Positions 18,530 to 43,600 of a stretch of DNA of 64,000 nt are shown in pieces. The notes beneath the pieces are model-generated. The model made no database searches and was not told the DNA's origin. It saw nothing but the letters and a program-made list of their open reading frames with translations. How positions within the stretch are numbered: the stretch's first letter is position 1; each line of letters starts with the position of its first letter. Origin of the DNA: Protoeuglena noctilucae (lineage: Eukaryota); assembly GCA_958009085.1 (NCBI GenBank), contig OY253672.1, positions 868,001 to 932,000 of the forward strand. The letters are read 5' to 3'. The translations under genes were made by a program, and so were the position numbers.

Positions 18530-21500
18530 TCACTTCTCGATTGCCACCAAGCGCTCCCACACCCGCCTCACAGCCTCCATGTGCCAGCCAGAGTCGAGCA
18601 GCACAGCGCCCAAGAGAGCCTCCACCACGTCTGCCAGAGCCTTGGGCGCCCCAGGCACACTCGGGGGCACCTCAAACGGCACCCCCTCGCCAGCCTCACC
18701 GCCCCTGCCCGCCCCTGCCCCACCCTTGACTGCGCGCGCACTGCCCTTGCATGTCCCTCCACCACCCTTGCCTGCGCCCGCACCACCTGCACCCACGTCC
18801 CCCCCGCTGCCTTCCTTGGCCCCTTGGCTGACCTCCTTTTCTCCCCCTCGCTCGTCACCCCCTGCCCCACTTGCCCCACTCGCACCAGCCCCGTCATTGC
18901 CCACCGATGCGACCGCATCCTCTGCAGAGCCCGACCCTGTGCCGCCTGCCCCGTTCCGCTTCTCTCGCAGCTGCGCCCTCAGGTCCTCCACTTGCACGAT
19001 GCAGTCTCCGATGGCGGCCACCAGAGGGGGGCTGGCGTGGATGAGGTGGCGGTGCAGCCCCGCGACCACGGCGCGGTACGCGAGGTGGTTGTTGTTGACC
19101 TGTGGGACGAGACGCACTTTTCATGTCAAATCGAATGCTTGATCGGCAACTGGTGCACCCAGAAGCAGGTTCTAGTTGCAGCTGCGCTCACCCATGCCAT
19201 GCGCCCCTCCGTCAGCACGCCCTCCCTGGCGTCGGGCATGTCGTCGAGGAGCTTTAAGGTGACGACCCAGTCAAGGGCAGCGTCGCCCTGCGATCGCAGC
19301 AAAGGCTCTTGCTTTGCTCACTCACTGTGGCGCACACCCCAGTGTACACAGCAGCACCCACACAGCAACACCCCCACACCAATGCCCAGCACAGTCCCAG
19401 CAACAGCAAAGTACAGACAGCCCGCAGCACATCCCTTCCACTCCTCACCAGGAACTCCAGTCGCTGGTTGCTGGCCAGCATGGGGTGCGAGCAGTGGGTA
19501 AAGGCGCGGAGGGCGAGGCTGGGGTCCTGGAATCGATACCCAAACCTCTCGCATACCCACTCCACCAGGTCCGCAGCCACCTTGTCCCGCACGGCACTCG
19601 CCGCCATCGCATCGAACTCCGCCTGGTGCTTGAGGACCTCGGGGAAGCCCGGTGGGAACACCAAGCCGCCCTCACCACCCTCGATGCCCTCACTGCCATC
19701 TTCGCCCCCCCCACCCTCCCCGCTCTCACCAACCCCGCCACCCTCGCCACCCTCGCCACCCCGTTGACCCTCGCTCGCCCCCGCCGGCGGCGCGTCCCGC
19801 CGGGTCTCTGCGCCAGCCTCGCCCTGCGCTTCCCACCCCCGTACCAGCGCCACCAGCGTCGCCGTCTCTCCCTCCCGCCCCACCGGCGTCGCACCGTTCT
19901 CCCGCTCCCCCTCAGCCCCAGCCCCCGAGGAGCCGTCTGCCCGCACCTGATCCGCACCTGCCGGCCCCTGCTGTGACGCCCTCTCGAGCGACCACAGGAG
20001 GTGGCGCAGCTGGCCCCCCGCCTCGTTCCCCGCCCCAATCACCTCTCCATCCACCTGTCCACCCACCGCCCCACCCACCGCCGCCGCCGGAGTCTCGCCC
20101 CGTAGAGTCGCCTCGCCCCGGACGAGCGGAGAGGCGAGGACGTCCGCGGCCACCAGGAACGCGAACGCCGCCAGGAGGCCTCCCTGGGTGTAGAACGCCC
20201 CCAGCACCGCCTCAAAGGTGTCCGCGAGCGACTTCAGACGGACCTGGGTGTGCAGGCGCGCCACGCCCGTCTCGGTCGGGTAAAACAACTCCTCCAATTC
20301 CCCAGACCCCACCTCCGGTGGCCCCGGCTCTGGTGCTTTCTCCGCACCCACGCGGGCCCGCTTGGCCGCACCCTCTGCCTCGGGCTGGCCGTCGGAGGCC
20401 GCGCAAGGAGGGTTGCCCTCAGCAGGGCCGCACGGGGCCGGGGTGATGTGGTCTGCCCCGCGTTTCTCGCCACAGCGGGGGCCCTCCGAAGCCCCAGCGG
20501 GCTCCACCCCACCCTCACCGCCCTCACCGCCCTCGCCGCCCATCTCCACATCGACAGCCACGGGAGCGGCATCGCTCGCCTGGGGGCGCAGCTTGCGGCG
20601 CGCAGAGGATGGCTCGGCAGCGCTTGTCTCCTCAGTGCAGGCCTTGGCGCCACCACCACCACCGCCACTGCCAGCGTCGCCGCCACCGCCACCGCCACCA
20701 CCAGCGCCGGCAGCGCTCGTCTTACCCTCGCCGGCGCTGGTGCTAGGGCCGACATCAACGCTGGCAGTACCACCAGCAGCATCAGCAGTGCCCCCGGCAA
20801 AGGCGTCGGCCTTTGCTGGGCCCGGGCCCATCCCTGGCCCTCGCCACGCGTAGCTGTTGTCGTGCTTGAGGGGCTTGACCCACATGAAGTCCTCCAGGCC
20901 CAGGTCCCGGCACCGCCCGGCCAGTGCGTCGTTGCTCACGATGCCGCTCTGCGAGAGACACCGGGAAGTGTGCTGTGAAGCGAGCACGCCAGAAAGCCCG
21001 CATGATGCCCTAGCAGTGCAGTGGTGGGATCAGATGGGCAATCCCCACCACTATAATGCATGAAGCACCGAGCAGACACCCCACGCCACCACAATCCCGG
21101 TCCCGCATTCGCCCCCCATGCAGCGCCCCGCCCCTCTCCTTGGCAGCCGAGAGGATGGCCTCAGACTTGTTCGGCAGGGTGCAGTAGAGCATGCAGGAGA
21201 TCACGAGCTTCAGCAAAGCATCGCCGAGGAACTCCAGGCGCTCCTGGCTGACGTGGGTGTTGGCGTGGCTGAGCGTCAACGCCTCGCGCATCAACGCAGG
21301 GCTGGGCACGACGCCCCCGGGCCGCAGCACCGAGGCGGCGTCCCTGGCGGCGCCGCCGCGAACGAGGAGGTCCGCGAGGGCCCGGCGCGCCTCGCAGGCA
21401 AGGAGGAGGCCCTCGGTGTTGAAGAGCGCACTTGGCAGCGTGCGTGGGAACGAAGGCACGTCCCCCGAGCACAGATCGTCCATCAGCGCAGCGGGCGTCT

Positions 21501-24500
21501 CCATGCCCATCCCGTGCACGCCCCCGCCCCCTCGCGACCGCTGCTGGTTGGCTGGCGGCTGCAGGAGGCTCCGACCGCACTCGCGCACCAGCACCAACGG
21601 GACCCTCGCCGCTTCCTCTGCCGTCAGCTCGTCCAGCTCGCCCGCGCCGTCCTCGAATTTGGAGCGGAAATTATCGAGGAACGTCGGCGGCGGCTCGTCT
21701 GCTGCCTCCCCACCCTCCCCACCCTCTGGCTCAGGGCCGCCAGTGGCCCCCCTCTCTCTGTCGCTCTCGCTGTCACTCTCACCCTCACTGCCCCCTTTCC
21801 TCCGCCTCCTCCCGCGCTTGTGACTCGCTTTCTTGCCGCTCGGATCGTCCCCCGAACTCCCGTCCTTCTCTGCACCCTCCATGGCCTCAGCCACACTGGC
21901 CACGCCGGCGTCACCACCACCTGCCTCCCCAGCCCCTGCCTTGCCAGCACCTGCCTTGCCAGCCCCTGCCTCGCCACCACCTGCCTTGCCGGCAGCCCCC
22001 TCAGCGCCCCCCTCACCGCCCAGCACCGCCTTGGCTTCACCCGCCTTCCCCCGTCCCTTCTTCCTGTCTTCCCCAGCCTCAGCCTTGGCCTTCACCTTCC
22101 ACGTCACATGCGACGCGAGCGTGTGCTGTGAAAGCCCCAGAACTACCGCGATCTTGGCCGGCATGAAGGACACGTAAGCGACGCGGCCCACCAGCGCCTG
22201 AGGTGCGGTTGGGGAGCCCCGCAGCCGCCCGCAGCGGAGGGGCGCCGTGACGACCTCCGCGCCGTCCCGGTGGCTCAGGGCGTGCGCCCGCAGCCGCAGC
22301 GCCCCGGCCGCGAGCTCCGCCGCGCGCGGCCAGTCCGCCGCAGTGTCGAGGGTCAGGGCCGGCGCCGGGCTGCCCGCCGCACGGGCTTGTGTGCCGTCCG
22401 ACCCCACCGCCCACGCCTTCGGGCGCAGCGGGCACAGGCAGTACCACTTGCGCCCCGCGTGGAATAACCGACTCAGGGCTGCAGTGCGTTCCGCGCTCAG
22501 GGGCTCCCCCCCCACCCGCCCCCAATCCTGCCTATCCCCAAACGCCAGCGTTGCCACCCGCTCTGCGTACTCCCGGTTGCGTGCGCCGTCCCTCTCCTGC
22601 CCCGGGGCGCCCAGCGGCGTGAGCAACGCCGCGTGCATGCCCATGCAGGCCGCCAGGCGGGGGTCCCCCGGCGCCAAGGGCCCCGATGTGACGTACTCCA
22701 CACGCACTGCCTCCCGATTGACGTGGAGGAGCGGGACATCGAGGCCGAGCGCCTCCAGGTCCTCGGGAGGCAGGCGTACGGGTAAGAGGAGCCCGGTGGA
22801 CAGCACCGTGCGCCGGTCGATGCCCAGTTGCAGCCGCAGGGCCTCGGTTAGCCTCGCTGAGCCCGGGGCGCCCTTTGCAAAGGGGTCGTCTGCCTGCACC
22901 GGGGCCAGCCGGTACAGGTGCACCTCCCTCGGCAGCTCTGCAGCTACGCCGTCGACCGCCGGGAGCGAACCCTTGGCGACACATGCACCGTCAGCTGCAC
23001 CCGTACCGTCCGCCACGCACTGGCTCCCATCCACCGGGGCAGGGACTCCAGGTATCTGCAGCTGCGGCGCACACGCGTTTTCTTCTGGCCCTATGGGTCG
23101 CAGCACCACACACTCGGGACCGGCGCGGGACACGACCGTGCCAATGATGGGCTTGCCGTCCTTAGTGGCGACGACCACGGGCTTCGGTGCGCGGTAGGAA
23201 GGGATCAGGGCCTGGGGCGAGAGGCTCTTGAGGGAGAGGCCGCCCGTGGCCACGGGGAGGAGCGATTCGTTGAGCTCGCCGGCGTTGTAGAGAGTCTCAA
23301 TGATCTGAAGGACTGCGGGGGTGAAACAGTGTCAGGTGAGGATCTGGCTACAAAAGGGAGGTGCGGATGACATGAGGATGTGGCTGGTACTGCTGGCAGT
23401 GACCAACAAGGCTAAGCTTATCAACAAGGCGAAATGCAACCTCACCGATTGCTGCCTTGGCCTTCCGTTTCGATCGGGTCACGACGGGGCCCTTGACGCA
23501 TCGCGCGAGGGGGTGTGTGCCTGGCGGCATGAGGCAGCTGACGCGCCAGCTCGGCACGTCCTTGTCGCTCTGCCTGACGGCTGCCGGGTCCGTCACGGCC
23601 TCCCCCGTGTCTTTGTCGATCATCTCAATGGCCACGACGGGACGCGGCGAGTGGTGGCTGCGGTAGGGGGCGCGGGGCGCAGGGTCAGATGGTGGGGCGG
23701 ACTCCGGCAGGGCAAGCGGGCACAACGTGGGGTGAGGAAAGCAGGATGGGGCAAACGAGGCGCGTTGCAACACAAAGTGGGGCGAGGGCACAGTCTTGCC
23801 AACTCGCCCACCTCCCCTCCGCACCCCATCACGACCCCCATCGCGCACCTGTCCCGCGGCAGGCTCTCGCAGTACATCCTCAGCCGCATGCCGGCGTCCA
23901 AAGCATCCACCAGACACCCGGTGCGACTGACGAACACCAGCTCCCTCCCATCCACTCCCCTCTCCTCGTCTCCCTCGCTGGTCTCGCTGTCCAACCCCTC
24001 TAAGGGATCCTGCAGCTCCAGCAGCCCCGCCCCGGCACCCAACAGCTCCCTGGCGACCTCCATCATGTCTTCCTCGCTGGTCTGGTAGCCCTGTAGCAGC
24101 TCCCGGAGCTCCGCCCCGGCCGGGCCGGCGGGGACCATCAGCAGCATCTCGCTGTCCCGGGCGCGGGCGCGGCCACGGCGCTGCGGGGAGCGAGGGTGAG
24201 GGTGGGGGTGAGGGTGAGGGTGAGGGTGAGGGTGGGTTTGAGGGTGAAATTAAGATGGAAGGCAAGGTGTGCAGTAACGCATTTGTACGGAAGCATGGCG
24301 AAATGGGATGCATGGGCCTTGTTGTCACCTGCAGGTAGCTTTTGGGCTGCTGCGGGGGGCAGAAGTTGATGACCACGGCGCAGGCGCGGATGTCCAGGCC
24401 CTCCTCTGCCACAGAGGTCGCCACGAGGTGCTTGAGGCGGCCGCTCCAAAAGTCCCGCAAGACCTGCTCCTGCACTTAGCGGGACGAGCGCGTGCCGTGG

Positions 24501-27872: not shown

Positions 27873-30800
27873 TTTTTTTTTTTTTTTGCCAATGAGGATT
27901 CAAAGAGATGACGGCTAGGGTACCCTCAAAACCCTACCCGCTAGAAAACCCGAGTAGAGAGAAGGAGAAGGGGAGGAGAAGGAGAAGAGAGGTGATGGCA
28001 CAAAGGTCAGTAGTAGCCGCCAAGCTAGCATACTCGGAGAACAGACACCCCCCCCCCCCTAGCCCCCCTATCCCGGCTCCAATGGAACACGGCGATTCGG
28101 TGGCGGCTGCGGGGGAGGCAGAGGTGGGAAAGAAGAGAAGAGGTTTTGAGTGACAGAAATGGCCTTGAAGAAGACCCCATGGGGGAGGGAGGGATCGTGG
28201 AGGAGTTGGAGCATAGAGGCCGCAGCTGGAGAGGAGAGGCGGTGGTGGCAGGCCATGGCAGACGAGATCCTGTGGCTGGCGTAGGAGACGATGCGAGCGG
28301 CCCTTGTCCACGCTGGAGCATCGGGAAGGTCAAGGAGTAGCATGGGGGGTGCACCTGGGAGTGGATGGCCCGTGCGCCAGTAGCGGCGCGCGGTGATGAT
28401 GGCGTGGAGAGTCTCAGACCACAGGAGACGCCAAGCGGGGGACCTGAGAAGGTCGGAGCTGGCATGGGTAGCGCCAAACCGGAAGAGGAGCGCGGTGGGA
28501 GTGCCACGGTCAGGGCAGAGGCCGGACGGCCCCACGGGGGGATGAGCAAGGCAGCGGTTGAGGTACTGCCAGGAAAGAGGAGGCAGGGATTGGAAGACGG
28601 AGTGCCACACGACCTGGGCCGTGCGACAGGACTCAGCCAGGTCGTGGAGGGACGTGCCGTGGCGTTCGAGGCAGAGGGGGCAGGGCTTGCCCTGGAGGTC
28701 AGAATAGGTAGGCAACCGGTCGGTGACAGCGAGCCAGGCCATGGAGGCGGTGGCCAGGTGAGCGGGGTTAGCCTGAGGGCGTGCCAGAGCGGCAGTCGCA
28801 GCATGTGCCAGGTGGGGAGAGCTGTCCTCCAACAAACGCTGGCAGGGTTTGTCCGTCGAGTATTTCGCGACCACGAAGGCCCTGTGATGGGCCTGGGGAG
28901 TGATGGATGCCAGGGGATGGTATGTGGGGCCAAGGGAGTGGCCATGCATGGAGAAGTATTGGGACCAACCCTGGGCCCTAAAACCAGAGATGCGGTGGAT
29001 GAAGTCGTGAGGGAAGACAGACAGGACTGTGGGTCCACGGACGTCATTCCAGGCGTTGGCGGGGAGCCCAGGGTGGCCAGGGCTGTTGATGCTGAGGTGG
29101 GCGGAGAGGGCAGAAACGAAGTCAAGACGGATCTGCCTAGCCATATAGGAGCCCAGGGCAGGGACCATGAGGGTCGTCAGTACATCGTCAGGGTCTTTGA
29201 GGCCCAGACGGCCGTTGTGGGCACGAGGGATGATGAGCGACGAGACCAGCGGGAAGGCCCGCTGGAGGGGTTCGAGGATAGGGATGATGGCGGCCCAGAT
29301 TTGTCTGGCCGTGGCATCAAGGAGCAGCCTTTGGTGGGAGGGGTCAGTGGAGCGGCTGTGCACGAAGTTGGCGGGGAAGGAGAGAGGGTTGTGTGGGTTG
29401 AAGAGAAGTGGGGCACGGAGCATTGGAGTCAGGTGGACCCACAGGTCATTCAGGGTGGGTGGGCTGGCGTATGGCTGTGGTGGAGGGAGCAGCTGAGTGG
29501 CGGGGAACATCGAGGTGGCACTGAAAAGGTCACGAATGAGGGGGGTGGGCGTGAGCTCCGCCCAGTCTTTGGCTGTCAGAGCACAAATGTGGGGCCCCAC
29601 CGGGATGGACAGCGTCGTCTCATAGCGCTGTCCGTCACATTTGACCGTCGCTTTGTACTTGAGGGACCTGACGAGGTGTTGGTGGATGGCATTGGAGAAG
29701 AGGGGGTCTGCGCCCGACGCATGGAGCTGGATCATCTTGAAGCGGAGGGCCGCTTGGTGAAAGGGCACGTGCTGGGCCTGAAGGCCGCCCCGGCTGACGG
29801 GGTGGTACAGCTCGTTCCTGTCAATCTCAGGCGGAATCCGTTGTGTCTTGGGGGATTCCGTGAGCACGTAGCGCTGGATGTAGCGTAGGAGCAAGGCACC
29901 CGGCTTCCCTGGCGAGAAGTCCATGGGGCAGTGCGTGGTCGCATAGATGAGGCGTGACAGCACGAACGTTTTGACAATCTTCCACCGATGGAGCAGTGGG
30001 ATATTGTGTGGTCTGAGGCGAAGGAGCTGTGTATAGATGCTTGCCACGAAGGAGGAGTAGTCGGTTGGGACGATCCCAGTGGGTCCCATGAGCGTGCCCA
30101 GGTATTTCACTGGCGCTGCAGGTTCTCCCCCAGGCGGGGTAATCCAGTAGCCATCGAGCATCCAGCGCTGCTGGGCATGGTCATAGACTAGCGAGTCGAG
30201 GCCGTGGGCCTGGGCAGCAGTGAGGTGCTGGTGGAGCGCTGCTGGGTCCGTGTTCCACTTTCCAGCAGGAATGATGCCCGTCTTGGCGGGATTAGAGCGC
30301 AAACCAGTGGCCTGGTGGAAAGTATCCAAGGCCTGGAATAAGTTGTGCATGGATTGCACCGTGGCCTGCACGAACTCGGTGTCGTCTGCAAATTGGCTGA
30401 TGAGGCTCTCCTGGGCGAGCCGCTTATCGGTGCGGAAAGCGTAGAGGGGGGGCTTGTTCGGTCCCGGTACCGGGAGGCCCTTGATGTCGGGGTTGGAGGC
30501 GACCAACTCATGGAGCGCGAGCGCCACAAGGATGAAGAGGGAGGGGGCGAGCGGGCAGCCCTGGCGGACGCCTGTGGAGACATTGTAACCACGGCTGAGG
30601 CCGCGACCCAGCTTGAGCTGGTAGGTGGCTGAGGGGGTGTGCATGATGTCGAACCAGGTGCAGAACGTTTCCCCAAAACGCAGGGTCTCGAGGATGCGTC
30701 TGAGGAAGGGCCGGTCGACCGTGTCAAAGGCCTTGGCGAAGTCATTGAAGATGATGAAGCAGCCCTCGTCTGACTGGTCGAGGAGTTCCAGGGTGGCGCA

Positions 30801-33335
30801 GGTAAGGTACACGCATCGTGAGATGCATCGGCCCTTGATGAAGGCCTGCTGGCTGAGGGGGATGATGCGTTGGAGGACGGGGCGTAGCCGGGAGTTGAGG
30901 ACCTTAGCGAGGACGCGGTAGACCACGTCATTGACTGAGATGGGCCGGAAGTCCGAGGGCTTGCAGTCCGTGGCTTTGGGGAGCTTAGGAATGAGGGTAA
31001 CGGTGCTGTTGAGGAAGCAGGCAGGCATGAAACCCGTCTGATGGATGGTGTTGAGGAGGAGAGTGAGGAGAGGAGCGTAGAGGTGGGCGTAGCGTTGGTA
31101 CAGGCCAGGCGGCAGGCCCATGGGCACCGTGGCGCTGTCAGGCTTGAAAGAGTGGATGGCCGCGAGGACCTCTTCTGTAGTGATGGTGGCATCAATGCTC
31201 TGCTGCTCCTGGTCAGTGAGCGTGCGCCCAGAGTTCTGGAGGACCTCCAGCACGTGGTGCTGAGCAGCTGGATTGCGGGGTCCGGGGCGCCCCACTGTCT
31301 CAAAGTGGTCCACAAGGGTATCCTCGACCAGGGCCGGTTCGGAGAGGAGCTGGCCGTCAGCGTCTCTGACGCTGGTGACTGGCGGGGAGGGCTTATCTCT
31401 GTCAGGCTGGAGGGCATGGGGGAGGGCCGAGGCTGGCACATCAAAGGACCGGGTTTTGTTCTGCCGGTCGAGGTTTGCGAGGGCATGTTGGTAGTAGTCG
31501 AGGATTTGGGACCAGAACGAAGTGGCGTCTTCGCCGTCACGCACTGCTGCAAAGTACTGCTCCCGCAGAAGCCGCAGCTGCTGCTTCCGCTGGTTGATGT
31601 ACTGGGACTGGTGTGCGTACCAGTGTCGGGCAATCTCCTGGATGGCATTGGCTGTCTGCTGAACCCAGCGCTTGGCGGTGCCGGGGGGAGCGGTGGGCCC
31701 GGGGTGGGCCAGGATGGCAGTGGACACAGCAGCCTCCTGCAGAGGCTCGACCTGCTGGCGGATCTCGTCCACAAGGAAGGACGCGTGCGGGTGGATGTTG
31801 GCGGGGTGCCGACGAGAGGTCCGGGGAGTGTCACGCAGGAAAATGTACACGGGCGCATGGTCAGAGAGGGCGATGTTGGCAGGGTGGACGCGAGCGGTGG
31901 CATCAGAGCATTCCGTGCGGAGGGCAACGGGCTGGTCCCGAGGGACGTAGAAACGGTCAAGTCGGTTCTTCCATGACTTGTCATGGGCCATGTCCCGGCG
32001 CGTGGGGACTGCAAATGGCTTGTTGTGGTCCTGCTCCCCGGCATCAATGAGGCCCAGGACGTCGATTTGGGCTTGCAGCTTCTTTCGCAGGGTGGTCTGC
32101 ACCTCAGAGGTGGACTGGTGGTTCGAGGATGAGGCTGCCATGTCGGCTGCGAGGACCATGTTCCAGTCCCCACCCATGAGGACCAGGCCGAGTTCGTGGG
32201 ATGCGAGGCAGTCAGGGAGGAGGGTGGAAAGGACGTAGTCTTTGTCAGCGGCGTCTTGGGGCATGTACACGTTGACGAGGGTGTAGTGACGGCTGGCCAC
32301 TTCGACATCAAGCCGGGCCACGAAGCCAGTGAGGCGGGCAGTGTCAGGTTCGGTCCAGGTGTGGAGGAGGTGGGAGCCAGGCTGGTTGCAAACGAGGATG
32401 GCCACCCCAGCCCGATGGGCTGAGGGCCCCTTGCGCCACACGTGGTGGCTGAGGCGCGCGAGGGACGCAAATGCGGCAGGGGGCTGATCCAGCTCAGTCT
32501 TGAGCTCTTGAAGGAAGACAAAGGCAGCGGGGGGAGCCAGCCATGTGTGGGGGTGTGCCTGGATGAGGCCAAGCAGCGCCTCCTGTTTCATGAGAAAGTT
32601 ACCATTGAGGTTGAGAGTGAGGGCAGTGAGGTTGGCCAGGCCTGGAGAGTGAGGCGGAATCGCCGGAGCCGGCCTTGCGGCCTGAGGTCGTGAGACGTTG
32701 GCCAGCGGTCGTTTAGACCGATTGGGGGCAGGTGCTACGAGCTGCGGCTGAGCTGGAGAGAACCCGGCCTGGAAGGGTTGGCCCTGGTCGCAAGCCCCCA
32801 CGGGTGCGGATGTATCGGAGGAAGGGGCCTGAATACGCAGGCGCTTTGCTGTGCTACGTGTTGTCGCCATTTTTGTACTGCAAGAGGACTGATTCGGCGA
32901 AAGATAGCGGCGCCGTCCGGAGAGAGATAAGGAGAAGAGGCGTTTGTTGTTCGGAAAGCCAGCAGGAGAGCCGAGATAGAGTAGCTAACAACGGAGAGTC
33001 GACGGCAAGAGTTGGAGGTCACAACGAGCAAAGCACTTGCTACCGCGGTGATGTCGTTAGGAGAGGAGCACATCGCTTGAAAAAGACGGGTTGGATTTGC
33101 TGCCGCGGGGAGCAGAGGGGGCGATGACGGCAGAGCGTTGTGGTTGGCCTCAGACGCCGGAGTAGAGGGCCAGACAGGCCAGGAGAGGGGCCCAGAGGCC
33201 AAATTGTATTCGAAAAGCGCAACGAGGCGCGGTGTAGTCAAAAGGCGGGTCCCCGGGGGGTCCCCGGGGGTGGGGAGGGGTACGCGCACGCGAGCCCTCC
33301 CCCCCGCCGCCAGGCCGGACGGCACTACCACGCTC
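27873..33335 (-). mobile_element. L1-clade non-LTR retrotransposon (LINE) with intact APE-RT ORF and poly(A) tail
   Basis: Intronless 1600-aa ORF, about 180 nt of 3' UTR, then A15 (T15 at 27873-27887 on the + strand). The 5' boundary is approximate and no TSD was found. Confidence 0.9.
28068..32870 (-). CDS. LINE ORF2-type polyprotein: AP endonuclease + reverse transcriptase + C-terminal Cys/His motif
   Basis: APE: TLNLNG, FLQE, VNVYMP, GGDWN, RLDRFY, SDH. RT: FRPIS, DFAKAFD, GVRQGCPLAP, QFADD, KYLG. C-terminal CPLC..H....C. Confidence 0.95.
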   Translation of the reverse strand: MATTRSTAKRLRIQAPSSDTSAPVGACDQGQPFQAGFSPAQPQLVAPAPNRSKRPLANVSRPQAARPAPAIPPHSPGLANLTALTLNLNGNFLMKQEALLGLIQAHPHTWLAPPAAFVFLQELKTELDQPPAAFASLARLSHHVWRKGPSAHRAGVAILVCNQPGSHLLHTWTEPDTARLTGFVARLDVEVASRHYTLVNVYMPQDAADKDYVLSTLLPDCLASHELGLVLMGGDWNMVLAADMAASSSNHQSTSEVQTTLRKKLQAQIDVLGLIDAGEQDHNKPFAVPTRRDMAHDKSWKNRLDRFYVPRDQPVALRTECSDATARVHPANIALSDHAPVYIFLRDTPRTSRRHPANIHPHASFLVDEIRQQVEPLQEAAVSTAILAHPGPTAPPGTAKRWVQQTANAIQEIARHWYAHQSQYINQRKQQLRLLREQYFAAVRDGEDATSFWSQILDYYQHALANLDRQNKTRSFDVPASALPHALQPDRDKPSPPVTSVRDADGQLLSEPALVEDTLVDHFETVGRPGPRNPAAQHHVLEVLQNSGRTLTDQEQQSIDATITTEEVLAAIHSFKPDSATVPMGLPPGLYQRYAHLYAPLLTLLLNTIHQTGFMPACFLNSTVTLIPKLPKATDCKPSDFRPISVNDVVYRVLAKVLNSRLRPVLQRIIPLSQQAFIKGRCISRCVYLTCATLELLDQSDEGCFIIFNDFAKAFDTVDRPFLRRILETLRFGETFCTWFDIMHTPSATYQLKLGRGLSRGYNVSTGVRQGCPLAPSLFILVALALHELVASNPDIKGLPVPGPNKPPLYAFRTDKRLAQESLISQFADDTEFVQATVQSMHNLFQALDTFHQATGLRSNPAKTGIIPAGKWNTDPAALHQHLTAAQAHGLDSLVYDHAQQRWMLDGYWITPPGGEPAAPVKYLGTLMGPTGIVPTDYSSFVASIYTQLLRLRPHNIPLLHRWKIVKTFVLSRLIYATTHCPMDFSPGKPGALLLRYIQRYVLTESPKTQRIPPEIDRNELYHPVSRGGLQAQHVPFHQAALRFKMIQLHASGADPLFSNAIHQHLVRSLKYKATVKCDGQRYETTLSIPVGPHICALTAKDWAELTPTPLIRDLFSATSMFPATQLLPPPQPYASPPTLNDLWVHLTPMLRAPLLFNPHNPLSFPANFVHSRSTDPSHQRLLLDATARQIWAAIIPILEPLQRAFPLVSSLIIPRAHNGRLGLKDPDDVLTTLMVPALGSYMARQIRLDFVSALSAHLSINSPGHPGLPANAWNDVRGPTVLSVFPHDFIHRISGFRAQGWSQYFSMHGHSLGPTYHPLASITPQAHHRAFVVAKYSTDKPCQRLLEDSSPHLAHAATAALARPQANPAHLATASMAWLAVTDRLPTYSDLQGKPCPLCLERHGTSLHDLAESCRTAQVVWHSVFQSLPPLSWQYLNRCLAHPPVGPSGLCPDRGTPTALLFRFGATHASSDLLRSPAWRLLWSETLHAIITARRYWRTGHPLPGAPPMLLLDLPDAPAWTRAARIVSYASHRISSAMACHHRLSSPAAASMLQLLHDPSLPHGVFFKAISVTQNLFSSFPPLPPPQPPPNRRVPLEPG

Positions 33336-33884: not shown

Positions 33885-34784
33885 ATGCGGTCGCTCGCGC
33901 GCCTCAGCCCGATGGCCGTTCGGGCCCCCTGCCAGTCAGCGCAGCAGCGTTTCGGCTCCTCCCTCTCGGTGGCGACGCGGGCGGCGAGTCCGGGCCACGG
34001 TGAGACGACGGGCACTGCAGCACAAAATCATTTCTCACATGGCGCGGCGTCGAAACCCAGCACGCGTTCCCCATGGCGCAGGCGACGGGGGCTCCTCGGA
34101 GAGCGGCTCATTGGAGAGCAGCCAGGAGGGCAAGGCGATGCGCCGCCAGGAGCGCAGCACGCCCCGTCGCCTCGGCCTGCAGAGCCCCGAGGACCTCTTT
34201 CAGCGCGAGCTGGACACAATCCGGTCGGTGCTGGACCTGTGGTCGCGGGGCCCGAGCCCCACGGGTCTGCTGCGGCCATTCGACATCGTCCGCGACCTGG
34301 CGGGCGAGACGGAGCCGTTTGGCGACCTTGGCTCGCTGGCCATGAACATCGCGGAGGACGAGGAGGCGTTCACGGTCACCGCGGATGTGCCCGGGCTCGA
34401 GCGCAAGGACGTCCACGTCCAGCTCCACCCGGACGGCACGCTCGAGCTGTGGGGGGAGCGGCGCACCGAGACCAAGAGAGAGAGTGCCCGCATGCACGTG
34501 CAGGAGAGGCACTTTGGCCGATTCAGGCGAGCCGCGTGGAGGGTATTGCCGCCAGCTGGGCCTGGCACGCGTGGTTTTACCGTGACGTGCTGCGGGGTGA
34601 GTTGATGGGCCTCGTCACCCGCCGTCTCCGCAGCCGGGAAGTGATGCTGCCCAAGGACCGCATCCAGGGCGACAAGATCAAGGCGTTTATGCGCAACGGC
34701 GTACTCACGTTGACGGTGCCCAAGGTCCCTGGGGAGGCGCACCAAGCGCAGGCGAAGGACATCCCCATTGAGGTCGGGGAGTGA
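33885..34784 (+). CDS. HSP20: Small heat-shock protein (HSP20/alpha-crystallin), probably organelle-targeted; 3 exons
   Basis: FTVTADVPGLERKDVHV, ERHFGRFSREVMLP, IKAFMRNGVLTLTVPK and C-terminal IPI. Exon 1 is transit-peptide-like. Confidence 0.92.
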   Translation: MRSLARLSPMAVRAPCQSAQQRFGSSLSVATRAASPGHGETTGTAAQNHFSHGAASKPSTRSPWRRRRGLLGERLIGEQPGGQGDAPPGAQHAPSPRPAEPRGPLSARAGHNPVGAGPVVAGPEPHGSAAAIRHRPRPGGRDGAVWRPWLAGHEHRGGRGGVHGHRGCARARAQGRPRPAPPGRHARAVGGAAHRDQERECPHARAGEALWPIQASRVEGIAASWAWHAWFYRDVLRGELMGLVTRRLRSREVMLPKDRIQGDKIKAFMRNGVLTLTVPKVPGEAHQAQAKDIPIEVGE

Positions 34785-34819
34785 GCAAGACCTGGCAGGT
34801 CTGATGAGCATGTATCGAT

Positions 34820-34903
34820 AGACATAGAGATGAATTGAATCGTATGTCGCGCCAATCATCGATGAGACATAGAGATGAATTGAATTGTATGCTGTGCCAA
34901 TCA
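34820..34903. repeat. Imperfect tandem duplication, 45-bp period
   Basis: AGACATAGAGATGAATTGAAT(C/T)GTATG....GCCAATCA at 34820 and 34865. Confidence 0.85.
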
Positions 34904-34936: not shown

Positions 34937-35889
34937 TCACGGTGCGTGCGGCCCCCGTGCCATGATAGCACCGGCAGTGGCGGCACAAAGCTGGGCAACC
35001 CAAATGGCTACCCGGCGGGGTAACTTCTCGTCGTCGCGTTCGGGGATTCCATAGGCATCTTGGTCTCGCTCCACCCTTGCCTTGTAGCTCACCCGCGCCG
35101 CCTCCATGGTCGCAGGCCACACGGCAAAAGAGCTCCGCAGCTCGACTGGCACGCCGCGACCGAAGACGAACGACGACGCCATCCTGAAGAAGCTCTCACG
35201 TGCGTCGGTAAAGCTGGCGTGCAAGGTCTCCAGGTCCTGCATCACATGGACAGGGGGGCAACACCACATCGCCGATGTCCGCAAAATGACTGCGAATATG
35301 ACGCCCAACCTTTTGGGCGCAATTGGCGCCTTCGGATGGCGCCCCGCTTTCCGCACCTGGGCACCCACATAAGCCCGCAGCCACTGCCCGGCCAGCCACA
35401 GCCCGAGGCTGCTCAGGGCCACCGAGGCTTCCTTGTTGTGCTCCTCGCTGCCGAGCAGATTTCGGTGCGGAAGCAGCTTCTCCAGGGCGAGGAGGAGGCA
35501 GGTGCGGGCGTGGGGGTGGTCGTGGAACACCTCCCAGAGCAGGTCCATATCCAGCCCCCTCAGATAAAGCATGAAGCAAAAGAATATGTCGCCCTCGTTT
35601 ACATGGATGCGCTGGTGGTCGCCTGCGGGACGGGGGGGAGCGGCTTCGGGTCCGTCCCTGGGGTACACCGGAGGACCGGCCCCGACGAGGCCGACCGGCG
35701 CGCGGACGCCCCCCGCTCTGCGCTCTTTCCACTTATCGCGGTATGTCGTGCCCGGGATGCCAAGCAGCCTGCCCGGCGCTGCGGGCCCGCGAGCCCGGCG
35801 CCCAAGTTTGCGGGCTCTGAAGGTGTTGCGGGCTCCTCACCGGGCTGATGGCCCTCGCCCTGCCCAATCATCTCCGCGTGATCCTTCAT
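34937..35889 (-). CDS. Hypothetical protein (helical), multi-exon
   Basis: Protein-like segments GDIFFCFMLYLRGLDMDLLWEVF..LLLALEKLLP and DLETLHASF..WVAQL, separated by a GT-AG intron. No family recognised. Confidence 0.55.
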
Positions 35890-37619
35890 GATTCGTCCAT
35901 GCAGCGAGAGACTGCGACAGAAGGCGAATCACGGGGGTCGTGCCGAGGCGGGGACCGAATGCCCTGTCCGCAGAGATGCACTCCCCGCAGCCGGCGTTTT
36001 GGACTATGACACGGCGGCGGTCGCGACGGGCGCACAGGGCGCGCGAGGACGCGGGGAGCCAAGGCCAGGGCAAAACTGACCCGTAAGTTGCAGAGCTCGG
36101 CACGGCTTGGAAATATGCGGCAATCAATGAGAAGCGCGCACGGTCTGGCCTCCGAAAGCGTCGCGTTGCAACGCCTGAAACTCAATCCGCCTGGCATCTG
36201 CTGGCCTGCGGGTGCGAGCAACGAGCTACGGCGTCGCGTCTCTGCTGCCGAGCTACACGCGCACGCAGCTCCGGTCCGTCGGAAGCGAGCCCTCACGGCT
36301 CGCCTGAGCATTACGGCCGCGGCGCATGCCGGCAGGGTCCAGCGGGCCTGCTTCGCGCCGGCACAGCTGCTGGACGCGCCGTGCGATTGTATGTTTCAGA
36401 ACGCTCCCCGGGGAGAGGTGGCGACGCCTCCCCGCGGCTCAATACGCTCGGTGCGGCCGCGACAGCGGCGTAGGGCTGGGGCGCCATGATGTGGAGGCTA
36501 TGGCTTTCGCTTCTCAGCGATCTCGCGCACTGGCGACGTGATGGTCGACAGGAACCGGCTGGCAGGCTTTGATGTGGAAAAGCTGTGCCAAGGGTGGGGC
36601 CGTGCCTGGGTCACGAACCAGGGGTTTAGGGACCACGATCGCTGGAAAGCTGCAGGGCTTCGCTGGGTGTGCGCGACGCTAGTGGCGTTCTAGACTAGCA
36701 GGCAAATCGCAAGAATCGAATCCGGAGCGCATGTGCCGTGCGCTGAGCATGGGTCAGCACGTCTGACATAATCAGAAACTGGGCGGACCAGCGGTCCGTC
36801 CGTGTTGGGGGGTGCAACTCCTCCCGCCGAGGCATCTTCAGCGGCCGTTCTCCGCGTCCATGTAGCGCTTCGAGTGTGCTGGACCGCTCGTGCTCTGCGG
36901 CACCTGTGCGTGGCCTGGCAGCCCGAGCAGTCGGGGACCGCGGACTGCGCAAGTGCGAGCTGGCGCAGGCGGACGGTTTGCACGTGCCAGGGCGTCGTGT
37001 GGGCGGGGAGAGAGGCGCCGCCGTCCGTGCTTCGCAGGTGGTGGTTTGAAGTACCTCCGGGTTGGGCGGGGTCTGTGAGCTGTCGTCGGGGCTGCAGGGG
37101 TGAGATGTTCATCGTGTCATTTGCGCTTCGGCGCCGCAAACGCGCGCGAGGGCGCGGTCGGAGGCCATTGTGCTATCGGAGCACGGTGGGGTCGCACCGG
37201 CTGCCCGCGCGCGCCGGTCCTGAGCGCCTAGTTGCGCGACGATGTTGCAAGGGGTGCCCCGGAGCGCCCGTGGGGCGGCCCTCCGACGAGGGCCACCTCG
37301 TCCCTGCGTCTCCGCGCGCCCCCCGGGCCCCTTGCGGTTGCATCGTCCCATTGCCGAGATTTCTACGTCGTTCGTGGCCCCTAGAGTGCGCCGCAGCTGT
37401 CGCCCCGCAAGCACGGGGGACGTGCCGCGTGATGTATCTCCGAGCACGCCCTCGCCACTCCGCCGCGCACCCGGCGCCCGCAAGAGCGGCGTTTGGGAGC
37501 TGCTTGGGTCCCGCGCGGCCGGGGCGGCAGCGCCCGGGGCCGCCACGTCGAGCGAGATTCCTTGCGCTCTCCGCAGGCGCCCCGTGCTGGCCAGCGGCCC
37601 GCGCTGGAGTCACTCGTGC

Positions 37620-40600
37620 ATGCGGTCGGGAGAGAGAGAGGAGGATCGCGACGGCCTGAACGTCCTGGCCGACGCTGCGGCCGTCGGCAATGACTCGGCC
37701 GGGGCCTCGAGGGCCGCTGCGGGAGAGGATGCGGTGAGCGAGGAGGGGTCTCTGTCCGGTGCAGCCGGGGCGCGGGCCCGCCGGAGCGGCACCCGGGGAG
37801 CCCGGCGGGGCGCCATCGTGCCGCCAGACTGAGATGAGCCCGCACGGCCGGTTCGGCCGCCCGGCTTCGCGCGGCAGCGACGGGTGCCGTCGGGTCCTCT
37901 CCGCAGGCGTTCCCAGCGCCGAGCCTGACGGACCTCGTGGAGTACAAGGTCCTCCAGACGGGCGCGGATGTGCTGGAGCTCAAGTACACGAGCCAGGACA
38001 AGCAGGTGCGAGGGACTTGCGGGAGCGCGGCGCTGCTGGGACGCGCGGGTGCGAGTCGGACCGGCGGAGATTACCGGCGCTTGCAGATCAACATTAACGA
38101 GGTGGCGTCCCTGGAGTGGGGCGGGCTCTCGGGGCTAGGGGGCGAGGCGACCATCGTGTGGCGGGGGCAGCGGTTCGTGGACCCCAACCGTTTCGCGAGG
38201 TTCGTGTACCAGGTCAAGCTGAGGGAGCTGAAGCAGCAGATGGCCGGGCGCGAGAGCGGGGGCGACCCGGGCGGGGTGACCGAGGTCAGCCGTGTCAAGG
38301 GCTGGCAGACGGTCAAGGACGCGGTGTCCAAGCAGTCACTGGAGGCGAGTGGTTTGCCGGGGCGAGGGGCGCGCCCATCTCACGATCATCCCCGCCGACG
38401 TGCTACGTGCTCCCGCCCGTCCGTGCTCTGCAGAAGCTGCGGGGAGACCTGAAGCACAAGCTCGCGAGGGAGCTGGCGACCCCCGCCAAGTCGACCGGGG
38501 GCGCCAAGTCCCGCGGCCGGTCTCCGGCTACGCGGGCCCAGGACGAGGAGGAGGAAGCACCCACGTGGACACTGACGGGTGCGGGCGGGGCGGTCAACCC
38601 GCCTGCGCATCCACGGCCCGCTGGGGCTGGGGTTTCTGATCGCCCTTGGTTTACGTGCGGACGCAGGGACCGACGTGAGAGAGGACCCCATCCTGAGGCG
38701 GCTGCTATGCGCACATGACGGGTGCACGAGCGTGGCCAAGTTTGGCGCAGATGGGGGGCCCCCACGGCACTGCGCGGCGCACCGGGGCGACGGGAACGTC
38801 TTGTCGGACTCGCAGCTGTGCAGCGAGGGCGACTGCCTGGCCGTGGCGCTGTGGGGAGCGCCGGGAGGGCCGGCGACGTGCTGCAGGGCGCACCGGCGAG
38901 AGGACATGGTCCTAGCGTCGGACCGGCTCTGCGCGCGGGACGGCTGCAAGCGGCCCGCCACGCACGGGGACGCCGGCGACGTGCCGCAGCACTGCGCGGA
39001 GCACGGGTGGATGGCGGGCGGGGTGGAGGTGACGCTGCCCCTGGCCGAGGCTTCGGGGGAGAGCAAGGCGTGCGGCTGCGACGGCTGCGATAACCTGGCG
39101 ACAGTGGGAAGGCCGGGAGTGGGCCGGGAGCGCTGCGAGCTCCACATGGAAGAGGGCATGCTGAGTTGGTGCTCGTACGCGGCCTGCCCGCGGATGGCGG
39201 AGGGCATGCCGCCCATTTGCCGTCTGCACTGGGTCCAGCAGGAGCGCTGGTTCCCCGAGGACGGCTCGGATGGGGAGGAGAAGGCGGGAGGTGAGACCGC
39301 AGAGGGGTTCATAACGGACGACGCAATGTGCGTCTGGAAAGCGAGATTCGCCGCCCCGTGGGACCGAAAGCGGGCATGTGATTGCTATCACGCTTACTCA
39401 TAGACCACTAGAAATGAATGGATAGATGCCGGGGCCCGTCCGTCGCAAGCTGTGTGTGGTGCTGTGCGCCATTACTGTGCTTCGGGCTCCCGCGCGCACT
39501 CGCTCGCTCGCTGGCATCTAGCGGCCCCGCGGTTCCCGCAGATGCTGGCGATGGTCAGGAGGAGGAGGTTACCGGCGGGGCGGAGGCCGCGGAGGAGGCG
39601 CGGCCGGGGGAGGCGGCGGAGTCGCAAGGAGCGTGGCTGGGACCCATCGCGGTTTCGCGCAACAGCATCCGGAACCCGAATCTTAAGATGAAGTACACGA
39701 TGCCAGCGCGGGGAGAGCAGTTTATGGCGATCCAGGCCGCGGTGCGGAAGGCCCTGCACAAGCCGGCCAGCTACCGCGTGACGAGTCCGTCGTTCACGGT
39801 CGGCCACAGCCTCCGCTGGAGCCCCGCGGAGCTCAAGAAGCACGCCACGGAGGTGCTGTCGAGCAGCCCGGACGTCAAAGCCGCGTTCGAGACACTTTAC
39901 GCGGCCTGCAAAGGAGGCATCGAGGACGCCATCAAGGCGGCCCTGGGCGGGTGAGTGGCAGCCGTGCAGGGACACAAGTGGGTCGCAGCGACGACGTTGG
40001 TGGGGACCCGTCCCTCACCAGGCGCTGGAGATGCGCCACAGCGCTCTTTTGTGATTTGTGTGTTGATGTGTCTGGACTCCCTCTCGCAGATGGGAGGCTG
40101 CGGTGAAGAGGTCGCTGGTGGAGGCGGCGCAGACGCACAAGCCCGTCCTGGTGGGCGCGCGGTGTGATGAGGGGAACTGCACGCGCCCTCCGAGGTATGG
40201 GGCCGAGGGCCAGCTGCCGACGCGATGCGTGCTGCACAAGCAGCCGGGGCAGGTGGAGCTGAGGGGCAGGTGCGCAGAGCCGGGGACCTGGCCCACCTGC
40301 GGGGAGTCCCCCTGCACGAGACGGGCCACGTTCAACAAGCCTGGGGTGCTGCCGCCCGTCGCCTGCGCGCTGCACAAGACAGCCGGCATGGAGCTCGTGG
40401 TCCGGCTGAGCAAGGCCCCGAGGTGCGGATACGGCGACTGGCGAGCAATCTGCGCGCCGGGCGGGAGCTGGGCAGACGGGCATGCACATGCCTGGCAAGA
40501 GACACGATTGCACCAGACAGTACACAGCAGCTTCCTCTCTGTCTTGCCCGCAGCTCTGCGCCGCGCGCGGGGGCGTCTGCTGCGCACGCAGGCGCGAAGG

Positions 40601-43600
40601 GACCGAAGGTGGAGGTGCGGGGTGGCTTGGCTGCGGTGGGCCAGCCCGCGCCCCAGGCCCTGGCGCCTGCCGTCGCTGACGTGGCGATGGCGGAGGGGGA
40701 CGCCGTAGACCGCGCGGGCGCAGCCGCGGCTGGGGTTGCAGGCGGCGATGGTCAGGCGGTGGCGGTGGCGCCATTCCCGGTCGCACCGGGGGCGGCTCTG
40801 GGGCCGGCGCTGGGCAAACGGCCGGCGGAGGGCAACGCGGCGGACGAGGCGGAGAGGAAGAGAGCGCGGAGCGCGACACAGTTCGACCTGCCGGACACCG
40901 CGCTGGCGGCCGGCGCGCCCGGGCCGGACGCGCCCGCGCAGGAGGAGCGGGCGGAGCTGGGGGCGGCTCCCAAGCTGCCCGCGCCCACGCGTATGCAGAC
41001 GCGGGGCCGCCACGTGGTCATCCCCGGGGTGAAGCGGGTCGAGAAGGTGGACACGGAGGCGGGGGTGGGCCCGCTGCAGAGAGGGCCGCTGCCAGGCGGG
41101 GCTGGCCAGGGCGCCACGCCTGGGGTGGACCCGGGGGTGCCTGTGCCCATCGCGCCCCTCGCCCCCAACGCGCGGCCCGTGCTGCCGATCGGCGGGGAAG
41201 GTGAGGCCGCGCGTACAGGCTTCGCGGCTTTGGCATAGTTCTGTTGTCCTGAGCCACGCCGACCACGCCTTAGGTCACTGTCGAGAACGCATGAAGCTGC
41301 ACCTCAAGACCTGGTGCTCGTTCGCCCTTTGCCTGCAGGGTTCGTGGTGGGGATGGAAGCGGACGACGACGAGGACTTTGGTGACGGCAGGGCCGTGCCG
41401 GTGGTCCCTCGCCCTCCGGCCTACACGCTCAGTGAGTGTCATTGCCAGGCTGGGACGCGTCTTCGCATCGGCGATGCCTGGGCCGTGTTGCGATCGCGTA
41501 ATTCTGATTCTTTCGTGGCTAGTGGCGCTGGCCATGTCGCCGACGAAGGGTGAAAGGGAGGGAGGGCTTGCACACGTGCCGAGGGAAGGGACCTTACAAC
41601 CTGATGCGCTCTCACCACCTCATAACTCGTCGACCCCTCGCCACCCCCGCAGTGCGCAACGACGAGACGGGCAAGCCCATCGAGAACATCAACGAGATCA
41701 TCAAGCTCGTCACCATGCAGATGCCCCACCGCAACGTCCTCGGGAACGACGAGGAGCGGCAGGCCGCAGATCGTGCTCTGGACAAGGCCATTGCATTCCT
41801 CGTGTCGCTCCTCGTCGGATACGTCCTCAACTCGGTGGTGAGCGCTCGGGCCGCCCCGCAGCTGATTTGAAGCACACCTGTGCGCGTCATGTGTCTCGCA
41901 CCCTTGTCAAATGCCTTGTGGCCCACACCGCCTGCATGGCAGTGGCCCACACCACCTGCATGGCAATGGCCCCGGACACGGCAAGGTGGCTGGGAGTAGT
42001 ACCTTTGCCGCAGTAAAGCACTTTCTGACTCTTTGTTCTCGCCTGTCGCCCCCCGCAGTACCCCAGCGGGCTCGTGTGGAAGAGCCTCCCGACCGTGCTG
42101 CGGCGGCGGGTGTCGACGTTCCTGCAGGGCCTGCCCGAGGTGCTCACGCGCGAGGCCAAGTCCACCCGCAAGATCGAGCAGTCGAAGCCGGAGATGTTCG
42201 ACGCCGCCATGGACATGCTGGGTCTGCCGTCCTGGGAGCGCATGGTGGACATCCTGACCGACACGCAGCAGCGGGGGCGCGCGCGGCGCAACCTTCTCTC
42301 CATCTTCAACGGCTGGAAGGACGAGCTGGAGCGGCAGGGGCAGATGCGGGGGGTGTTCGAGTCGAGGGTGAGGGAGGTCGTGCACCGACTGGTCACCACC
42401 ATCGCCGAGCAGGCCAAGAGGTCCTACGCCAACTCCCCGGGGCACTACGCCGCCACCATGAGGCTCCTGGCCTCCACGGCCGCCTCGCAGGCGCCCCCGC
42501 CCAAGGCCAGCCGGGCGGGTGAGTCGAGGGCTGTGAGGATGAGGACGTCCCACAACACAGGCAGGCTGGTTGTGATGCGGGGTTCGTTTCAATTCGATCG
42601 TTGCGCAAACTAAGCAGTGGGGCAGGCGCACCTCCTCGCGACAGCACGTGTGCTAACAGTATGTTGGCGCTTTTATGCTCTCCTGCCGCAGGGGGCCGAG
42701 CGCCCAGGGAGGCCCGCAGCAACCGCGCCGCGCGCTCGACCACCCCGACGGCCGCCCGCGGAGGCGCCAACGGATCCCGGCGCCGCGCCTCGTCCCCGGC
42801 CAAGGACCCAGCCCCAGCCGAGCCGCACGAGGGCCCCCCCGCGGCCGGGTTCAGCGACGCCTGGCAGCCGCAGTTCCTCGACGCCATCGCCACCATGCCC
42901 ATGCCGGGCTTCCCGGGTGCCCCGCGCATCGACGCCACCTTCCCGCCCTTCCCGCTGACCTTCCCCCGCCAGCCGCCGCCCGGGCTCGGCATGCCGCCCC
43001 GGCCCTGGGGCCCGCCGCCCCACTGGCCTGGTGCCCCTTGGATGCCTTTCGGCATAGGCCCTTTCGTGTCCACTGAGCCCATCGGCCTGCGCCGCAATAC
43101 CCTAGACGACCTCGCCCACGTGGCCAGCCAGGACGTGTCAGAGTCTCCCATGGAGGCGAAGAAGGCGCTGCGGAACGCGCCGGCCTCCGCGCCCGTCGGG
43201 ATGGGCCACGGCATGGCAGTGGTGAGTGCGGTGTGAGAGAAGGGTCGTAGACGTGGGGGGTCTGTCAAGGGTTCTGGATGCTCGGGCAGGCACTGCAGGG
43301 GTTCTGTTTATGTCGAGGCATGCGCTGGTGCGGAGATGGTGCTGCAGGGGCGGTGCAGCAGGGGCCTGTTAAGGTGCCGGGCTTGGTTTCTGAGCTGTTG
43401 ATTCGACGGTGGTCCATTGATGGTTCATTACGCCTTAACGACTTTTAGTCACCTCTCTGCGTCTCGCTCACCACGTCAGCCACCTCTGTGCGCGTTGCTT
43501 ACCACGACTGAACACAGAAATCTCCGCCGTCCCCACAGGGTGTCGGGCCGAGGGACGTATGGGCAGGGACGGACGACATGACCCCATGGCGCATCGGGGA

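Follow-up and report, generated by a model that had tools for sequence, protein, structure and literature searches.

The domain described here is closest to the RAMA family (PF18755), for which MPND (7YDT/7YDW) and CcrM (6PBD) serve as structural references. In MPND and MYSM1 the domain is paired with JAB, elsewhere it occurs fused to adenine methylases, and its presence in green algae and in proteins without JAB is already known (PMC4738411). MPND RAMA binds double-stranded DNA with a strength of 1.5 micromolar, independently of sequence and of 6mA, and it is S113, S115, and W135 that touch the backbone; the RAMA domains of both MPND and CcrM contact only the DNA backbone, with no base contacts, and S113A and S115A each nearly abolish DNA binding by MPND (PMC9963953). 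The same domain binds histones too, and flanking acidic tracts tune its binding to both DNA and histones (PMC9963953). Selectivity for 6mA was found for MPND RAMA in pull-downs, but not for MYSM1 RAMA (PMC6591016), and the preference of MPND is termed unconfirmed elsewhere (PMC11037411). AMT1 is linked to robust 6mA, and the readers of this mark are said to remain unidentified (PMC12695648).

The second family that bears on this locus is that of the EsV-1-7 proteins (PF19114), among them IMMEDIATE UPRIGHT of Ectocarpus. The EsV-1-7 motif is described as a possible zinc finger without an assigned molecular function (10.1101/2024.02.19.579948), and the Ectocarpus EsV-1-7 genes are stated to carry no other Pfam domain (bioRxiv 10.64898/2026.04.27.720984).

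Here we describe a gene whose product probably joins the two, with a highly diverged RAMA domain placed N-terminal to six EsV-1-7 repeats. It lies in a window of 64,000 nt (G000:C5:868001-932000) from a 26.3-Mb genome of 27 contigs. The window has a GC content of ~66%, and its housekeeping genes are eukaryotic and rich in introns. The genome holds two copies of nuclear rbcS, each split by one intron, and we take nuclear rbcS to be a marker of the green lineage; on that basis the host would belong to this lineage, and the term chlorophyte is plausible. A preliminary description of the window had reported a RAMA-like peptide without a JAB/MPN partner domain. It was correct as to the missing JAB domain, but the large EsV-1-7-repeat protein that carries the RAMA-like domain had been overlooked.

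The gene model comprises 12 coding exons and ~1,303 aa, and its spliced leader holds an in-frame stop before the ATG (Table 1); its last two introns are prediction only. Searches with four exon queries found the gene as a single copy in its own genome. RNA contigs from 4 runs of one metatranscriptome study, which may also be DNA-derived, were compared over window positions 36500-41600, where they gave ten splice joints, nine on the strand of the gene and one antisense. The gene is transcribed. Over its 5' UTR, an X3 RNA contig skips positions 37092-37197 with CT..AC ends, which corresponds to a spliced antisense transcript.

The three peptide pieces that had been quoted for the RAMA-like domain are present and fall in a single spliced frame. 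Four short exons had been proposed between 37907 and 38460, but this interval contains three (37907-38005, 38087-38344, and 38434 onward) separated by two introns. The intron upstream of the domain (37734-37906) is supported by an RNA joint in 1/4 runs. The 81-nt intron inside it is absent from the RNA joints; an X3 contig reads across it, and an X2 contig stops exactly at the donor at 38005. Read in frame, this intron has a GC3 of 20/27, lower than the 112/119 of the exons around it (Fisher p 0.005). The donor agrees with the confirmed donors of the gene. It is probably spliced, and would then be retained in some transcripts unless the contigs are DNA-derived. Unspliced X2 and X3 contigs cover 38164-38342 and 37906-38200. 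A further 12 candidate introns lie within 38087-38344, 3 of which keep the frame, and none of the 12 has an RNA joint among the contigs of the 4 runs. We rejected a fourth exon inside 37907-38460, which neither the RNA joints nor the analysis of candidate introns supports. Because the 81-nt intron contains no stop, the RAMA-like region can be seen as a 204-aa stop-to-stop frame (37838-38452) that includes both of the first RAMA-like exons, and it had already been predicted by a gene caller as P0001; the earlier statement that it is invisible in the ORF track does not hold.

Table 1. Features of the RAMA-like/EsV-1-7 gene (window positions).
Feature	Position	Strand	Basis
5' UTR exon, start approximate	36845..36952	+	X2 RNA joint 36952-37038; start inferred from contig extent
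5' UTR exon with in-frame stop upstream of ATG	37038..37099	+	RNA joints on both sides; translation
First coding exon, ATG 37620; acidic leader (net -5, aa 1-43), LxxLAxAA motif	37577..37733	+	
RAMA-like exon A: helix 1, strand 1	37907..38005	+	RNA-confirmed acceptor; profile and alignment matches
In-frame GT-AG intron, 81 nt	38006..38086	+	GC3, donor consensus
RAMA-like exon B: strands 2-4, long helix 2, ~20-aa insertion, GW motif	38087..38344	+	
Contact-equivalent residue Asp (MPND S113)	38180-38182		
Contact-equivalent residue Asn (MPND S115)	38186-38188		
Contact-equivalent residue Trp (MPND W135)	38303-38305		
GC-AG intron, 89 nt	38345..38433	+	RNA joint in 2/4 runs
Exon: RAMA helix 3, basic linker, short acidic patch	38434..38578	+	
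Exon with four EsV-1-7 cysteine-rich repeats	38667..39290	+	PF19114 E 3.7e-21, 4 stretches
Acidic linker and basic ~120-aa region without known family, single copy	39542..39950	+	RNA joints
Exon with two further EsV-1-7 repeats	40090..40422	+	PF19114 E 1.5e-17, 2 stretches
Ala/Gly/Pro-rich exon; bipartite NLS-like motif 40816-40863	40554..41200	+	RNA joints; pattern scan
Short acidic exon	41339..41431	+	RNA joint 41201-41338; loose end at 41431
Two exons (41653-41837, 42059-42518), ~200-aa charged region without known family	41653..42518	+	Acceptor 41652: RNA loose ends; intron 41838-42058: predicted only
Last exon, predicted: Pro-rich tail, second LxxLAxxA motif, then stop	42692..43236	+	Beyond the RNA-covered stretch

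From its N terminus, the predicted protein consists of an acidic leader, the RAMA-like domain (aa ~44-165), four EsV-1-7 repeats, an acidic linker, a basic region, two more EsV-1-7 repeats, an Ala/Gly/Pro-rich stretch with the NLS-like motif, the ~200-aa region, and the Pro-rich tail. Both clusters of EsV-1-7 repeats are well above the Pfam cut-off (75.1 and 63.6 bits versus 25). No family, structure, or paralogue matched the middle and C-terminal regions significantly, and a viral match to them was rejected as driven by its seed. LxxLAxxA motifs lie near both protein ends (37656-37679 and ~43103-43126), and we assume that they resemble co-repressor-binding helices. To judge from its sequence, the protein is probably nuclear. 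Its coding exons contain no JAB domain (the scan covered all of them but the short exon 41339-41431), and the 11 JAB matches of the genome all lie on contigs other than C5, which carries this gene. This absence, which distinguishes the protein from MPND and MYSM1, is unremarkable because the contigs of the RAMA genes likewise hold 0/11 of these matches and because many JAB-less architectures are given in PMC4738411.

The repeats sit on a long, partly low-complexity protein, as in other EsV-1-7 proteins, here as six copies in two clusters. Unlike the Ectocarpus genes, however, they follow a RAMA-like domain and occur in a green alga, and in contrast to the RAMA family, the domain has no JAB, methylase, or nuclease partner. 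A whole-word search found no paper, among those covered, that pairs RAMA with EsV-1-7. The architecture is apparently unreported. The domain itself would belong to a known family, as a divergent member that agrees with the others in its green-algal occurrence and in standing in a probable chromatin protein without JAB (PMC4738411). The union of RAMA-like domain and EsV-1-7 repeats in one protein hints that the repeats may do chromatin work.

The motif order of the domain agrees with RAMA. Helix 1 (LxxL), the hairpins, helix 2 (preceded by an F-x-S/T cap), GW, and helix 3 are all present and in sequence. Motif order, predicted topology, and the Trp of GW are shared with MPND, CcrM, and the Pfam family. 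It differs from the family in a longer first hairpin, a ~20-aa insertion after helix 2, and Asp/Asn at the positions of S113/S115. In MAFFT alignments, helix 1, hairpin, helix 2, and GW were in register with RAMA domains, and by eye the motifs came in an order and at a spacing close to those of rows from Ostreococcus, Bathycoccus, and Phytophthora in the supplement alignment of PMC4738411. Acidic patches flank the domain on both sides, as they do in MPND.

To score this likeness we built four profiles that leave out the query. They draw on 66 bacterial RAMA domains, to which two paralogues from the genome of the gene were or were not added. Of 69 loci (L124-L192), 66 supplied the bacterial domains; two partial matches were dropped, as was L128, whose genome (G125) is unpublished. 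Across four phylum samples, 9, 36, 29, and 0 of 151 genomes had matched; the 9 include G125, on which no other result depends. With the paralogues as queries, searches for RAMA sequences of eukaryotes returned nothing besides the called gene of one paralogue itself, and the profiles are therefore mostly bacterial. With hmmsearch, the spliced domain scored 6.0, 7.1, 6.1, and 13.5 bits, and 7, 4, 8, and 0 of 2000 shuffles, respectively, scored as high; splicing raised the scores by only 1-2 bits. A comparison by hhalign gave a probability of 41.9% with the profile that combines the paralogues with 11 bacterial domains of non-CcrM type (0/60 shuffles as high) and 1.6-7.1% with the other three, where the bacteria-only profiles (1.6-2.5%) fell inside the shuffle range. 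End-to-end scoring with cheap long gaps, a setting that we chose and that favours the expected insertions, gave z values of 3.7-6.3 over all four profiles, with 0/500 shuffles and 0/300 natural decoys as high; a retest with two profiles gave 0/2000 and 0/1802. When gaps were penalized more strictly, between 4 and 26 of the 2000 shuffles scored as high (Gumbel p 0.01-0.04). Pairwise p values against the paralogues were 0.004-0.014.

MPND and CcrM have a fold of three helices and six strands, with which two predicted models of the domain were compared. An unguided single-sequence AlphaFold model (pLDDT 45), of too low quality to decide on the fold, contains the unit of hairpin and helix 2 (E81-85, E88-90, H93-116), models the region of helix 1 as a strand, and has no RAMA structural match. 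With 37 rows of aligned RAMA sequences as its guide, a second, low-confidence model (pLDDT 53 overall, 72-81 over residues 81-110) ranked MPND 7ydt first of 48,161 chains in VIA-align (Z 7.3, rmsd 3.2, 81 aligned) and CcrM 6pbd second (Z 6.0, rmsd 2.4, 71 aligned), the next chain scoring 4.2; both matches are partly circular because the model was itself built from RAMA sequences and had no decoy control. In Foldseek, the guided model had no match at E<=0.001.

General searches for the domain were negative. Neither its intron-containing frame nor its single exons matched PF18755 at E<=10 (cut-off 35.2 bits), and when the genome was searched with PF18755, two other genes exceeded the cut-off and the RAMA-like locus was not among the matches. 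A phmmer search for relatives over 1.84 billion representatives returned only the domain itself and one chance match driven by the repeats; a word-index search returned itself alone (1/132 candidates), as did a search of its own genome for a second copy. No match for the domain was found in the PDB by sequence, in PHROGs, in NCBIfam, in the ESM Atlas (best 0.76), by BLASTP against a paralogue, or by BFVD fold search at E<=0.001, and 0/9 stretches on viral contigs were confirmed as relatives. Among metagenome contigs, the 1/275 that matched is a bacterial glycosyltransferase locus, which we judged a chance hit.

These null results, the dependence of significance on gap costs, the large search space of 940 window frames, and a structural match that comes solely from the guided model would all fit an orphan alpha/beta domain whose likeness to RAMA arose by chance within 64 kb. 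We consider this improbable. The spliced domain scores above every one of the 940 frames with 3/4 profiles (with the fourth, one frame reaches 11.4 versus 6.1), its reversed sequence scores at background, and the motif blocks follow each other in order across the whole domain. Taken together, the comparisons lend moderate support to a RAMA fold, which we regard as very likely. The earlier term RAMA-like is probably apt. The motifs are ordered and their likeness to RAMA is better than chance, if not strong; its significance is modest and varies with the gap costs, and Pfam gives no match. If the assignment is correct, Pfam overlooks divergent algal RAMA domains.

The two RAMA genes that Pfam does recognize in this genome share the motif series, and their contigs are without a JAB match. 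They have no intron position in common with the gene in the window; unlike it, they score above the Pfam cut-off (65.5 and 45.9 bits) and keep Thr/Ser at the contact positions. One of them, at L212:4030-5012 (G000:C10 ~746-747 kb), has a zf-CW-like exon after it (below cut-off, E 3.5e-4) and is a better candidate for a chromatin reader. The other is an exon (L002) at G000:C12:142696-142962 (~142.7 kb), with a run of N shortly downstream.

Only 1/3 of the MPND contact residues is kept, with S113 replaced by Asp, S115 by Asn, and W135 retained as Trp. Among our reference domains, the S113 column is Ser/Thr in 68/68 and the S115 column His/Ser in 68/68. In the eukaryotic and viral rows of PMC4738411 that we compared by eye, the S113 column deviates in 7/37, one of them having Asp, and the Asp found here therefore lies within the range of the family. 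The net charge of the domain is only +2. We lean toward a RAMA-fold domain that acts as a weak, methylation-blind tether to DNA or nucleosomes on a nuclear scaffold. The fold would consist of three helices, strand hairpins, and GW, with the longer first hairpin, a lengthened helix 2, and the insertion that follows this helix. If it behaves like the domains of MPND and CcrM, it would tether the protein weakly to double-stranded DNA or nucleosomes, irrespective of sequence and methylation. The six downstream EsV-1-7 repeats may contribute zinc-dependent contacts to DNA or protein, and the remaining chain probably recruits partners.

The altered contacts could also mean that the fold was kept and DNA binding lost. 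The domain would then bind histones or other proteins, and DNA would be recognized, if at all, by the EsV-1-7 repeats. An Asp at the S113 position would preserve the helix cap yet repel phosphate, the invariant Ser/Thr of the reference domains points the same way, and in MPND the alanine substitutions nearly abolish DNA binding in a domain that binds histones as well (PMC9963953). On the other hand, the counterpart of W135 is still a Trp, the lengthened helix 2 brings basic residues, and the published eukaryotic and viral rows vary at the S113 column (PMC4738411). We think such a loss unlikely, and continue to favor the weak tether.

The preliminary description had proposed a 6mA reader. A protein of this kind might, for example, read symmetric 6mA-ApT in linkers downstream of the TSS and thereby direct this EsV-1-7 protein to genes that are active. 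The genome does contain an AMT1/MTA1-type MT-A70 gene (G000:C7:233293-233517), which matches 7f4r-type entries at E 2.4e-22 versus 1.6e-6 for METTL3; we take the 7f4r-type entries to be the ciliate MTA1/AMT1 complex. A second MT-A70 match lies on contig C1. Given a host in the green lineage and an AMT1-type MT-A70, genomic 6mA is plausible. AMT1 goes with robust 6mA whose readers are being sought (PMC12695648), MPND RAMA was 6mA-selective in pull-downs (PMC6591016), and RAMA occurs in fusions with adenine methylases (PMC4738411). Nevertheless, binding by MPND is unaffected by 6mA and, in the published account, involves no base contacts (PMC9963953), MYSM1 RAMA is unselective (PMC6591016), the preference is called unconfirmed (PMC11037411), and the equivalents of S113 and S115 are changed here but remain Thr/Ser in the two canonical RAMA genes of this genome. 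With backbone-only contacts in a 6mA-blind MPND and 2/3 contact residues changed, the proposal is not supported, and we regard 6mA reading by this protein as doubtful. The genomic context would permit a reader without pointing to this protein in particular. As readers of AMT1-type 6mA, the two canonical RAMA paralogues would be better candidates, and the window protein ranks below them. Least probable of all is a remodelled RAMA domain, with altered phosphate contacts and a long helix 2, that reads AMT1-made 6mA-ApT linkers while a virus-associated EsV-1-7 zinc array gives sequence specificity. If true, this would provide the AMT1 pathway with a reader and would also give EsV-1-7 repeats of a cellular protein a molecular role.

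Elsewhere in the genome, two other EsV-1-7 loci (L213:4552-6843 on G000:C19 and L214:3199-6393 on C10) lie 21-28 kb from the contig starts. They have a C-terminal domain in common that has no Pfam match and possibly represent zinc-repeat nuclease genes; by eye, we take the shared domain to be GIY-YIG/T5orf172-like. Within the window, the gene is preceded by a 299-aa open frame without Pfam match (34940-35836, minus strand), which separates it from an Hsp20 gene (34138-34903) with a two-copy 45-bp tandem repeat directly past its stop (34814-34903). Farther upstream, a 1,638-aa open frame with endonuclease and reverse transcriptase domains (28071-32984, minus strand) represents a LINE-type element, and Dicer-like long frames with several RNase III matches occupy 18533-23331 on the minus strand.
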